Below are positions 285 through 1,876 of a stretch of 9,462 nucleotides of DNA, in pieces (the stretch's first letter is position 1; each line of letters starts with the position of its first letter). This DNA is from a virus. Lineage: Duplodnaviria > Heunggongvirae > Uroviricota > Caudoviricetes. Both the position numbers and the translations under genes were made by a program. The DNA lies in the IMG/VR virus record IMGVR_UViG_2571042690_000013. One strand, written 5' to 3'. The notes beneath the pieces are model-generated. The model ran no database searches and was not told where the DNA came from. It saw only the letters and a list, made by a program, of their open reading frames with translations.

Positions 285-1334
285 TCAAACGATTAAACCC
301 TGAACTTCCCTGACTGTCTGCTCAAAACGTCCGGTCTCCAGCTCAACGCCAATCGCACGACGCCCGAGCGCCAGTGCCGCTTTTACCGTTGAACCTGAGC
401 CCATAAAAAAATCTGCAACCAGGTCACCCGGACGACTGCTTGCGCTGATTATCTGCTGCAGCATTTCTGCCGGTTTTTCGCACGGATGTTTCCCGGGATA
501 GAACTGCACCGGTTTATGTGTCCACACATCCGTGTACGGCACCTGCGCCGTCACACCAAAATACCGCCGCAGATGCTTATATTCACTCTGCAGCTCCACA
601 TACTGCCGGTTCAGTGACGTATACGTATCCACCAGCTGGTGGTGGGGCTTTTCCAGTTCACCGCGCTGATGTTTCTCTTCTGCCACCCGGGCAAACAGCG
701 ACTGTAATTTCAGATAATCGCTTTCGTTCGGTAGCTGCCACTGACTGGCACTGAACCAGTGCGACACCATGTTTTTCTTTCCTGTGGCATCTGCAATCTG
801 TTTTGCCGTTATCCCCAGGGCCGCGCGCGCATCACGAAAGTAAGAAATCAGCGGGGCCATCACATGCTGTTTCAGTGCACTGCCCTTCGCCGCATACCCG
901 GCATCTTTCGGACGATACGGCCCCTGATAATGTTCCGCGAACAGAATGCGCTCTGTGGCGGGGAAATACGCCCGCAGGCTTTCCTTGTTGCATCCGTTCC
1001 AGCGTCCGGACGGCTTCGCCCAGATAATATGGTTCAGCACACTGAAGCGTTCACGCATCATGATTTCGATATCAGATGCCAGGCGATGACCACAGAACAG
1101 GTAAAGACTTCCGGCAGGTTTCAGCACCCGCCAGAACTGCGCCAGACACTGGTCCAGCCACTTCAGGTAATCATCGTCGCCCTTCCACTGGTTATCCCAG
1201 CCCTCAGGCTTCACTTTAAAGTACGGCGGGTCCGTGACTATCAGGTCAACAGAATTTTCGGGTAACGACCGGATAAATTCCAGGCAGTCGGCGTTGATTA
1301 ACTCACAACTGGATATTTTTACAGTATTAGCCAT
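285..1334 (-). CDS. Orphan DNA methyltransferase, beta-class N6-adenine/N4-cytosine family (N6_N4_Mtase-like)
   Basis: 349-aa ORF with ATG start. Motif IV DPPY (DLIVTDPPYF) lies N-terminal and the AdoMet-binding motif I FxGxG (DFFMGSGST) lies C-terminal, the circular permutation typical of beta-class amino-MTases. No restriction endonuclease partner is visible; the next features downstream are tRNAs. Confidence 0.85.
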   Translation of the reverse strand: MANTVKISSCELINADCLEFIRSLPENSVDLIVTDPPYFKVKPEGWDNQWKGDDDYLKWLDQCLAQFWRVLKPAGSLYLFCGHRLASDIEIMMRERFSVLNHIIWAKPSGRWNGCNKESLRAYFPATERILFAEHYQGPYRPKDAGYAAKGSALKQHVMAPLISYFRDARAALGITAKQIADATGKKNMVSHWFSASQWQLPNESDYLKLQSLFARVAEEKHQRGELEKPHHQLVDTYTSLNRQYVELQSEYKHLRRYFGVTAQVPYTDVWTHKPVQFYPGKHPCEKPAEMLQQIISASSRPGDLVADFFMGSGSTVKAALALGRRAIGVELETGRFEQTVREVQGLIV

Positions 1335-1471
1335 AGATCAATAAGCACTTCTCTGATAGGCTCATACCGCTTTTGCGCAAAGCAGATGGGCCTGAGGTTT
1401 GCTTGTGACCCCAACGCATGAGCAGATGGCTGGTGGGTGCCCCTAACACCCACCAGCCGCCCATTTACCAC

Positions 1472-1499
1472 AAATAAAAAAGCCTTCACTGCGGAAGGC
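1472..1499 (-). terminator. Rho-independent terminator (minus strand) between the small ORF and the methyltransferase
   Basis: Minus strand reads GCCTTC-cgcagt-GAAGGC followed by TTTTTTATTT. The hairpin overlaps the TGA stop of the upstream small ORF. Confidence 0.6.
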
Positions 1500-1683
1500 G
1501 TCTGTAACAACCGAACTGATAGTCTGCCAGACCCGCCATAACCAGCTGGGTCAGTATTAACTGGCAGCGTTCGCGTGAAAGGTAAGTATTCTGCGCAATC
1601 TCCCCGGCTGTCGCCGGTTCGGTGACGCTTAATTCATTAAACACCACTCTGGCGGTTTCTGTCATATCCTGCTGTTTCAGCAT
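1486..1683 (-). CDS. Small hypothetical protein (~65 aa), possibly a winged-helix PapI/FaeA-like DNA-binding protein
   Basis: ORF in the track is 1486..1770 using a non-ATG start; I prefer the internal ATG at 1683 (MLKQQDMTETARVV...), which has a weak AAGGG upstream. The segment GEIAQNTYLSRERCQLILTQLVMAGL resembles a helix-turn-helix. Assignment is by weak resemblance only. Confidence 0.4.
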   Translation of the reverse strand: MLKQQDMTETARVVFNELSVTEPATAGEIAQNTYLSRERCQLILTQLVMAGLADYQFGCYRRLPQ

Positions 1684-1803
1684 GTCTTTTTCCCTTTTCC
1701 GGTTAACGTGACACACCAATAACTCTTGTCGAAAAAGCCAGCAAGCTGAAAGACAGGTATTCACCGCCACCAGCGCGTTTACTGTACTGACGCGATTTCA
1801 GTC

Positions 1804-1828
1804 ATAAAAAACCCGCCAGGCGGCGGGG
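1804..1828 (-). terminator. Rho-independent terminator (minus strand) about 80 bp downstream of Q; tR'-like candidate
   Basis: Minus strand reads CCCGCC-gcct-GGCGGG (6-bp GC stem, 4-nt loop) followed by TTTTTTA. No T-run follows on the plus strand, so it is unidirectional. Confidence 0.65.
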
Positions 1829-1876
1829 TGTAAAAAATCTTCTAACGTCAGGCATAAAACGCCCATCGTTAGAGCA

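Follow-up and report, generated by a model that had tools for sequence, protein, structure and literature searches.

The window analysed here is a stretch of 9,462 nucleotides (nt) from the Caudoviricetes virus record IMGVR_UViG_2571042690_000013, and our subject is a cassette at positions 285 to 1830 in which a small open reading frame (ORF) and a DNA methyltransferase gene lie behind the antiterminator gene Q. The minus strand carries every gene of the window. Along it, from 5' to 3', follow RusA, Q, terminator 1, small ORF, hairpin/terminator 2, a 150-nt spacer, methyltransferase, tRNAs. A prediction made earlier from the sequence alone, called the original prediction below, had listed Q, a terminator, a small ORF, a second terminator and a methyltransferase, and all of these are found. 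It had also described the methyltransferase as bracketed by terminators, which does not hold: both terminators flank the small ORF instead, and none follows the methyltransferase within the window. The features of the locus are the following.

1910..2731, minus strand: Q antiterminator gene (PF03589, E = 5.6e-51; PHROG 127, "anti-termination protein Q-like").
1877..1904, minus strand: putative late promoter pR', with -35 element TTGATT (1899-1904), a 16-nt spacer, and TGn with -10 element TAAATT (1877-1885).
1862..1870, minus strand: AACGATGGG, a -10-like element and putative pause site within the initially transcribed part, a 9-mer identical to that of lambda and at the lambda spacing from the -10 element.
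1804..1828, minus strand: terminator 1, predicted to be tR', a 6-base-pair (bp) all-G/C hairpin CCCGCC-GCCT-GGCGGG (1812-1827) followed by T6 (1806-1811).
1708..1745, minus strand: element CTTGCTG-N9-10-(C/A)AGAGTTA(Y)NTGT in the 5' untranslated region, conserved in alignments of the regions upstream of the small ORF.
1486..1683, minus strand: small ORF of 65 amino acids (aa), predicted winged helix-turn-helix (PHROG 331, annotated as unknown function, E = 5e-37).
1472..1499, minus strand: hairpin/terminator 2, GCCTTC-CGCAGT-GAAGGC (1482-1499) followed by TTTTTTAT.
1428..1464, minus strand: leader hairpin P1, with 5' arm GGCTGGTGGGTG (1447-1458), 3' arm CACCCACCAGCC (1428-1439) and invariant 5' flank AAATGGGC.
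1335..1427, minus strand: remainder of the leader, with helices P2 (1421-1426/1398-1403), P3 (1359-1392) and P4 (1401-1410/1336-1346).
285..1334, minus strand: predicted non-specific N6-adenine DNA methyltransferase of the M.EcoGI/M.EcoGII family, 349 aa (PF01555, E = 2.4e-44).
160..235, minus strand: tRNA with anticodon CAT, called Met by ARAGORN and Ile (ileZ-like) in RefSeq and in Shiga toxin (Stx) phage records.
1..59, minus strand: tRNA clipped at the window edge, tRNA-Arg in the annotation of identical genomes.
2728-3108, minus strand: RusA, the gene preceding Q.

Positions 1-2800 of the window are 100% identical to a prophage present in many E. coli genomes, and are an exact substring of the chromosome of E. 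coli sequence type 131 (ST131) strain EC958. The complete prophage continues 3' of the tRNAs with genes for DUF3927, IraM, a SASA esterase, holin, lysozyme and terminase, and it lacks stx genes. Together with Q, the stretch 285-1830 very probably opens the late operon of this lambdoid, stx-free prophage.

The methyltransferase is of the beta class with a DPPY motif, as originally predicted. Its PF01555 match (152.4 bits against a cut-off of 26.7) spans positions 1-219 of the 221 of the profile; DPPY at residues 35-38 and FMGSG at 310-314 stand in beta-class order, with the target-recognition domain between them, and the solved relatives 8urk, 1nw8 and 6pbd align as two stretches flanking this central domain. 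Compared with M.EcoGII, as given in the supplement of PMC11551740, the protein has equal length and 329 of 349 identical residues, an approximate count because the query was machine-read from a PDF. A few of the roughly 20 differences look like errors of reading; those that are real concentrate at residues 236-278. M.EcoGII, a prophage enzyme of the beta class with 349 aa, methylates adenine whatever the context; its native lysogen does not express it, its expression slows growth, and phage 1720a-02 carries a relative very similar to it (PMC5778455). The same phage 1720a-02 is among the direct DNA matches to this region.

A second line of comparison leads through EC958. Its prophage Phi4 carries the methyltransferase M.EcoMV, which is 99% identical to M.EcoGI and negative by reverse transcription polymerase chain reaction (RT-PCR) in laboratory conditions; the same ST131 methylome paper reports that M.EcoGI was determined to be non-specific, and considers M.EcoMV non-specific by homology (PMC4659465). 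The EC958 protein at the matching locus is WP_000024331.1, the accession also found in the genomes identical to the window, and we infer that the window methyltransferase is M.EcoMV. The literature likewise reports that non-specific N6-methyladenine (m6A) was not seen in lysogens of C227-11 or O111. The best prediction for the window enzyme is thus that it has no sequence specificity, and the earlier statement that its target specificity is unknown is outdated, because close relatives have been characterised as non-specific.

In the window, as in two complete copies of the prophage, no endonuclease gene adjoins the methyltransferase, and none lies next to the cassette in Stx2 phages, SfV, mEp460 or cdtI. 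A Type II restriction-modification system would place a cognate endonuclease beside the methyltransferase; here its neighbours are the small ORF and the tRNAs, so that the claim of an enzyme with no restriction partner stands. Two genes alone resemble nucleases: one in the nin region for a DUF968/HNH protein (3109-4164), the other an HNH gene that is associated with the terminase and lies beyond the window. The C-terminus of the DUF968 protein, two genes upstream of Q and away from the methyltransferase, is HNH-nuclease-like (HNHc_6, E = 3.8e-07); we take the protein to be of a common lambdoid nin-region type, which it resembles, and it is unlikely to be a restriction partner.

The promoter signals between Q and terminator 1 match those of phage lambda. 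The Q protein (273 aa) is 30% identical to lambda Q by BLASTP (E = 1e-36), and carries an inserted run of extra CxxC zinc-finger motifs relative to it. Between the Q stop (1910) and terminator 1, the window reads TTGATT-N16-(TGg)TAAATT-tgctct-AACGATGGG, to be compared with TTGACT-N17-(GGg)TAAATT-tgactc-AACGATGGG at lambda pR'; the match between the two is GGTAAATTTG-N5-AACGATGGG. The motif AACGAT is a -10-like element that causes the sigma-70-dependent promoter-proximal pause where lambda Q loads, and motifs like AACGATGGG are found upstream in 6 of 58 related loci. Transcription would start near A1870 and would terminate about 65 nt on, at terminator 1. The short RNA from pR' to terminator 1 folds into two hairpins (-21.9 kcal/mol, z = -2.9); no Rfam family reaches its gathering threshold over 1335-1870, the permissive best being P26 at 22.9 bits against a gathering score of 36, which is at chance level.

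Terminator 1 itself, whose hairpin and T6 run confirm the strong intrinsic terminator originally placed at 1804-1828, recurs at a distance of 84-133 nt 5' of the small ORF: of 59 loci, drawn from many genera, 54 have it, and their stems come in 24 different sequences. Such a terminator occurs in 6.5% of random 250-nt windows. Homology to phages with other Q genes starts exactly at its hairpin, and at least three unrelated promoter-leader modules are seen upstream of it. We firmly take terminator 1, on these comparisons, to be tR' and the common left border of the cassette. A Q homologue, a promoter with a pause element and a nearby intrinsic terminator are the parts by which lambda-type late antitermination is recognised in a sequence. 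In Stx phages, PR' is constitutive and transcription is halted at tR' until Q acts (PMC7547250). The lambda-like pR' and AACGATGGG ahead of terminator 1, the shared border, and the reported silence of the gene in the EC958 lysogen all agree with the earlier proposal of expression by Q antitermination: Q-dependent late expression is a well supported prediction.

The neighbourhood of the cassette varies. In Stx2-converting phages it occurs at about 93% DNA identity and is followed by tRNAs and stx2AB; in SfV, mEp460 and cdtI it occurs at 73-82% DNA identity, with lysis genes directly after. In Stx2a_1447 and cdtI, two opposite-strand genes stand directly upstream of the cassette that opens with terminator 1, and in cdtI these genes part the cassette from Q; the cassette therefore appears to move as a block that starts at the terminator.

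The small ORF has a conserved start at ATG 1683 and a stop at 1486-1488; a 94-aa version with a GTG start, from the program-made list of reading frames, was rejected in favour of this start. Genera from Escherichia to Xenorhabdus share the start and the N-terminus MLKQQDMT; helix 3, CQL(I/L)LTQ..AGL, hardly varies, and the reading frame is retained in two divergent alleles. By these signs, the small ORF is a real gene. Of 80 genome loci, with methyltransferases that are 62-99% identical, 62 have it immediately 5' of the methyltransferase gene; this synteny holds in different genera, between which identity of the small protein falls to 35-50%. In about 16 of the 80 loci its place is empty or taken by a different gene, with the leader and the methyltransferase kept, so that the small ORF is a frequent, not an obligatory, partner. 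The PHROG 331 winged-helix gene is present in very many Enterobacterales prophages.

An AlphaFold2 model of the small protein (predicted local distance difference test, pLDDT, of 70.8) has the topology H1-strand-H2-H3-wing, and Pfam yields sub-threshold generic winged-helix matches solely (TrmB at 0.0015, MarR_2 and DprA_WH), in line with the suggestion of a possible winged helix; RefSeq labels the protein "TrmB family transcriptional regulator". Sequence and profile searches of the PDB and a Foldseek search give only non-significant generic winged helices (best Foldseek E = 0.26), SelB-SECIS and Z-alpha being two of these weak matches. PapI, too, is a small protein with a winged helix, and it works with Lrp at Dam GATC sites. 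The weak resemblance to PapI/FaeA-type regulators that had been suggested for the small protein fades on inspection: neither allele matches FaeA/PapI in Pfam up to E = 10, and PapI appears neither in the top 50 PDB matches of Foldseek nor in the PDB profile search, so that a shared fold class is what remains. A Com-like match is also lacking, the protein having two cysteines, no zinc finger and a winged-helix model. In two other loci, L022 and L025 (positions 2058-2297), a 79-aa cysteine-rich ORF with multiple CxxC motifs replaces the winged-helix ORF and adjoins the leader and the methyltransferase; it recalls the zinc-finger Com of Mu.

Upstream of the small ORF, the core [CA]AGAG[TC]TA of the element at 1708-1745 lies less than 90 nt from the ORF start in 56 of 58 loci. 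The CAGAGTTA core of the element reappears about 25 nt 5' of the methyltransferase AUG in many homologues, and in Xenorhabdus an element of this type lies within an 8-bp hairpin (UUGGUCAG...CUGACCAA) directly before the Shine-Dalgarno sequence. The element has no clear palindrome. A sigma-70 scan finds no promoter within the cassette, and the arrangement CTTGCTG-N17-TAnnnG, considered as a promoter, was rejected as a poor sigma-70 match in which sigma-54 and sigma-E features are absent by eye.

The second hairpin overlaps the end of the small ORF, its TGA sitting at the junction of the loop and the 3' arm. A hairpin with a stem of at least 5 bp over this stop codon is kept in 45 of 53 distinct loci, compared with 27% at random positions; the count comes from a stem search in each sequence with a control at random positions. 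RNAalifold finds no consensus in the alignment of this region, in which the stem register differs among clades. There are 33 different 5' arms, with compensatory changes, although the stem encodes the C-terminus of the protein. The 8-nt tail is U-rich (at least five U) in about 15 of the 53 loci solely, with 7 U of 8 in the window, and such a tail is absent in Photorhabdus and Xenorhabdus. The proposal of a second terminator over the stop of the small ORF thus holds for the window, which has both hairpin and T-run, and fails to extend to the many genera without a U-tract. In the lineage of the window the element looks like a true second terminator; the family-wide conserved feature is a hairpin that the ribosome ending the small ORF must open, and which may couple translation of the small ORF to downstream events.

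Between this hairpin and the methyltransferase lies a leader that is conserved, at 82% mean column identity, among 37 sequences from Escherichia to Providencia. No Shine-Dalgarno sequence precedes the methyltransferase AUG. The whole leader folds at -66.4 kcal/mol (z = -4.3), and P1 at -33.7 kcal/mol (z = -3.4); with its outer extension, P1 forms an imperfect stem of about 20 bp. The 5' arm of P1 is invariant, and the 3' arm varies yet stays paired through G-U or compensatory changes. Further down, helices P2 and P4 are mutually exclusive, and the last pair of P4 is 1 nt from AUG 1334. In the two leader models, 92.9% and 94.7% of cells are paired and 8 pairs are altered on both sides, values as high being reached in 0 of 500 shuffles; slid controls for the helices give 31-47% paired and 2-6 doubly changed pairs. 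One P2 pair is seen as C-G, A-U, U-A and U-G, and in P4 95.8% of cells are paired, with 3 pairs changed on both sides in the sequence data.

Constrained folds make the P4 state the minimum of energy in 26 of the 37 homologues. Measured against P4, the P2 state has a median deficit of 3.5 kcal/mol in stability; it matches or surpasses P4 in 11 of 37, and in the lineage of the window itself P4 is favoured by about 10 kcal/mol. We read the leader, from these conserved pairings, as a putative translational lock on a harmful enzyme, and possibly a switch.

Several other candidates in the leader were set aside. An ORF starting at ATG 1464 could encode a leader peptide: it has 45 codons here, where it overlaps the methyltransferase ATG, 33 in Stx2a_1447 and SfV (a 1-nt indel), and 7 in many genera; it was rejected as a conserved coding unit, its ATG being missing in some Xenorhabdus. 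A helix P5, pairing ATCAG with CTGAT by the AUG, has many mismatches and no compensatory changes, and P4 was preferred. The helix P1a (AUGGGCG/CGCUCAU), chosen by RNAalifold, has no doubly changed pair, and its column 63 covaries with column 89; it is kept as a possible alternative pairing.

P1 also marks a border. A scan of viral contigs for its motif returns 121 instances, 114 of which have a methyltransferase start 130-133 nt downstream; 4 lead into an unrelated AT-rich ORF of 237 aa, and 3 are cut by contig ends. In the four (L107, L145, L171 and L190), the small ORF, terminator 2 and P1 are followed by the AT-rich ORF, with the junction right after P1. These contigs, together with the loci that have the leader and lack the small ORF, point to P1 as a recombination joint. 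The window holds nine copies of the Chi octamer GCTGGTGG, against 0.35 expected from shuffles, located at 629-642, 1429-1457, 1767-1774, 3474-3533, 3932-3939 and 9236-9243. One lies in the invariant 5' arm of P1 (1450-1457) and another upstream of the small ORF (1767-1774). Two pairs form palindromes with Chi on both strands, one being CCACCAGCTGGTGG within the gene of the methyltransferase and the other made up of the arms of P1. Chi may play a part in the joint at P1 or in the invariance of its arm.

Taken together, these observations lead us to propose, with a probability of about four in five, that the locus is a Q-released late cassette making a non-specific adenine methyltransferase for restriction evasion, held by several locks in the lysogen. 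The identity of the enzyme, the anatomy of the sequence and the conservation and covariation of its signals come from the present analysis; the non-specific activity of close relatives and the silence of the lysogen come from the literature. To these we add by inference Q-dependent read-through, its timing, the anti-restriction benefit and the switching of the leader. In a lysogen, RNA polymerase would start at the lambda-type pR' and halt about 65 nt later at tR', and nothing downstream would be made. Upon induction, Q would load at the promoter-proximal pause and render the polymerase terminator-resistant; the modified polymerase would then pass terminators 1 and 2 into the two-gene module of the 65-aa winged-helix protein and the methyltransferase. 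Made at the very start of late transcription, the enzyme would hypermethylate replicating phage DNA before packaging, and the progeny genomes, on entering the next host, would withstand most adenine-sensitive restriction systems. Several locks would be expected because the enzyme is harmful to a living cell: tR', the hairpin or terminator over the stop of the small ORF, and the 150-nt leader, which may pair the bases just before a start codon that lacks a Shine-Dalgarno sequence. Protection of progeny genomes had been part of the original prediction, and it matches the role through late expression already proposed for the enzyme family (PMC5778455).

A number of points weigh against this proposal. 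The activity of pR' is read from its match to lambda because a simple sigma-70 scan makes no call there (8 of 12 matches). The count of identities with M.EcoGII is approximate because the machine-read text has evident reading errors, and the clustering of the roughly 20 differences at residues 236-278 makes an altered specificity conceivable. The window methyltransferase was equated with M.EcoMV by the description in the paper, not by locus tag. The compensatory changes in P4 come largely from one clade (Providencia/Morganella), and related sequences can outscore column shuffles without any structure. Finally, our literature search found no paper that shows phage-particle DNA methylated by the enzyme after induction.

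Other readings of the small ORF and the leader have to be weighed. The small protein could be an ordinary DNA-binding transcription factor, one that regulates its own gene or a controller resembling the C proteins of restriction-modification systems, acting on 1708-1745 or on another phage promoter, with the leader hairpins as mere processing or stability signals. Its winged-helix fold, the sub-threshold similarity to TrmB, MarR and DprA_WH, and its RefSeq name all fit such a role, as does a conserved element before its own gene whose CAGAGTTA core is repeated in the methyltransferase leader; and RNase III cuts imperfect stems of about 20 bp, of the kind formed by P1 with its outer extension. 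The cassette has no promoter-like site, though, the element is not clearly palindromic, and covariation that supports alternative helices exceeds what a simple processing site needs. We consider this account possible but doubtful. Another conjecture, tentative and rather unlikely in our estimate, sees in the locus a lambdoid counterpart of the com-mom system of Mu: a bistable leader would gate the methyltransferase; the small protein, as a post-transcriptional activator that binds or remodels the leader, or the ribosomes that end its ORF within the stop-codon hairpin, would flip the gate from P4 to P2, so that the toxic enzyme would be translated solely upon expression of the upstream gene; and the Chi-bearing P1 would double as the recombination joint for exchange of the module among phages. 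In its favour are a synteny that holds in 62 of 80 loci across genera although the small protein diverges to 35-50% identity, the near invariance of helix 3 and of segments of the leader, compensatory changes in both of two exclusive helices, states that lie within about 3.5 kcal/mol (median) with P2 equal or better in 11 of 37 homologues, and an AUG without Shine-Dalgarno sequence. There is precedent in Mu Com, and in com-like genes before non-specific adenine methyltransferases of Mu-like prophages (PMC3299994); moreover, some winged helices bind RNA, and the weak matches in fold include SelB-SECIS and Z-alpha. Yet about 16 of the 80 loci retain the leader and the methyltransferase without the small ORF, the small protein is no Com homologue (two cysteines, no zinc finger), its fold matches are generic and non-significant (best E = 0.26), and P4 is ahead by about 10 kcal/mol in the window's own lineage.

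Two further readings bear on the enzyme and its expression. The original prediction pictured a sequence-specific orphan methyltransferase with a PapI/FaeA-like partner and methylation-dependent regulation. The enzyme is indeed an orphan and adenine-specific by family, and the small protein shares a fold class with PapI; against this stand about 94% identity to a characterised non-specific enzyme, the non-specificity of M.EcoGI cited in PMC4659465, and the failure of Pfam (E <= 10), Foldseek PDB and PDB profile searches to match FaeA or PapI. Besides, the sites at which PapI works with Lrp are Dam GATC sites, and these would be erased by a non-specific enzyme. This version is largely refuted, and we give it next to no credence. 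It is also very improbable that the cassette is a moron active in the lysogen, which would modify host DNA or RNA at a low level from its own promoter for the benefit of the host. Such a reading would suit a mobile block with its own borders, found behind different Q modules and sometimes behind opposite-strand intervening genes, and with a conserved non-coding element 3' of terminator 1. The block, however, opens with a terminator and not with a promoter, a sigma-70-like site is not called, expression of the methyltransferase is deleterious, and the lysogens speak against it: RT-PCR is negative in EC958, and C227-11 and O111 lysogens are without non-specific m6A.

The rest of the window holds a few features of separate interest. 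For the CAT-anticodon tRNA at 160-235, the choice between Met and Ile decoding hinges on lysidine modification. A gene for epoxyqueuosine reductase QueH (5015-5701; PF02677, E = 1.1e-65) lies in the nin-like region, where a gene for tRNA modification is unusual; the phage bears tRNAs of its own as well. At 4613-4947 there is a toxin-antitoxin system of the hok/sok type, with a sok RNA (RF01794, 120.5 bits) at 4772-4947 and a hokD toxin gene according to the RefSeq annotation of identical genomes. The replication-initiator-like gene at 7841-9070 contains a perfect, in-frame tandem duplication of 252 bp, or 84 codons, at 7863-8365; EC958 carries a single exact copy of this unit at its locus, where the annotated gene measures 963 nt. 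The same gene has an array of 15/30-bp direct repeats (TCAACAGTTGACGGG-like) at 8631-8729 that looks like origin iterons.

As written, the original prediction adds little, because the identity of the enzyme and the general idea have already been published. The residual interest is in the conserved regulatory anatomy and in the small winged-helix partner. As far as we found, the co-travel of the two genes across Enterobacterales, the covarying stop-codon hairpin and the leader that can pair the bases beside the start are apparently undescribed. The M.EcoGII family is a widely used tool, in footprinting, in MadID and in the engineering of RNA methylation, and its proposed natural role is broad restriction evasion by temperate phages, Stx-converting ones included. 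The comparative data amount to a map of how phages silence, and then release, a context-free methyltransferase that damages cells: tR', a covarying hairpin at a stop codon, a leader over a start that lacks a Shine-Dalgarno sequence, and a co-inherited PHROG 331 gene. If established, the function of the small protein and the leader switch would explain why the enzyme looks "inactive" in the methylome of every lysogen.

It remains to place the cassette among known systems. M.EcoGI and M.EcoGII, from prophages of E. coli O104:H4 C227-11, and M.EcoMV are like the window enzyme in their length of 349 aa, in their order of DPPY, target-recognition domain and FxGxG, in being prophage-borne and in having no endonuclease partner. 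The window allele differs from M.EcoGII by about 20 substitutions, clustered at 236-278, and its activity is a prediction. Among the papers on these enzymes that we examined, none describes the native upstream signals of M.EcoGI, M.EcoGII or M.EcoMV.

Homologues of the whole cassette have been recorded before. They include orf47-orf48 of SfV, whose record marks a rho-independent terminator upstream of orf47, and the cassettes of 45-kb Stx2a phages, in which a "transcriptional regulator plus site-specific DNA methylase" was noted between q and the tRNAs (PMC8456039); the DNA identity of these cassettes to that of the window is 82-94%. The SfV and Stx2a annotations come without a specificity or a regulatory model, and SfV, unlike the window, has a terminator after the methylase. 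With respect to the PR'-StxS-tR' arrangement of Stx phages, the leader behind the promoter is probably not of the StxS type here. StxS goes with the clade of 144-aa Q proteins (PMC7547250), whereas Q is here lambda-like with 273 aa, and the terminator alone is common to phages of other Q types.

The late control of lambda is the closest parallel for transcription: both have a Q homologue, the -10 element TAAATT, AACGATGGG at equal spacing, an intrinsic terminator, and late genes beyond it. The lambda RNA that ends at tR', the 6S RNA, is 194 nt long, and the short transcript of the window about 65 nt; Q has an inserted zinc-finger segment here, and it is the small ORF and the methyltransferase, not lysis genes, that stand first among the late genes.

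For what lies beyond the terminators, the nearest comparison is com-mom of Mu, and com with Hin1523, Nma1821 and Hia5 (PMC3299994). There, too, a harmful gene of broad modification is preceded by a very small ORF, and late expression and an anti-restriction role have been proposed; a leader stem covers the start region there, which P4 may parallel here. The small protein is here a predicted winged helix and not a Com zinc finger, the enzyme is of the beta class, neither alpha-class nor Mom, and transcription would depend on Q antitermination instead of Dam, OxyR and C. By analogy, then, the cassette resembles com-mom in its possible mode of action, and not as a member of that family.

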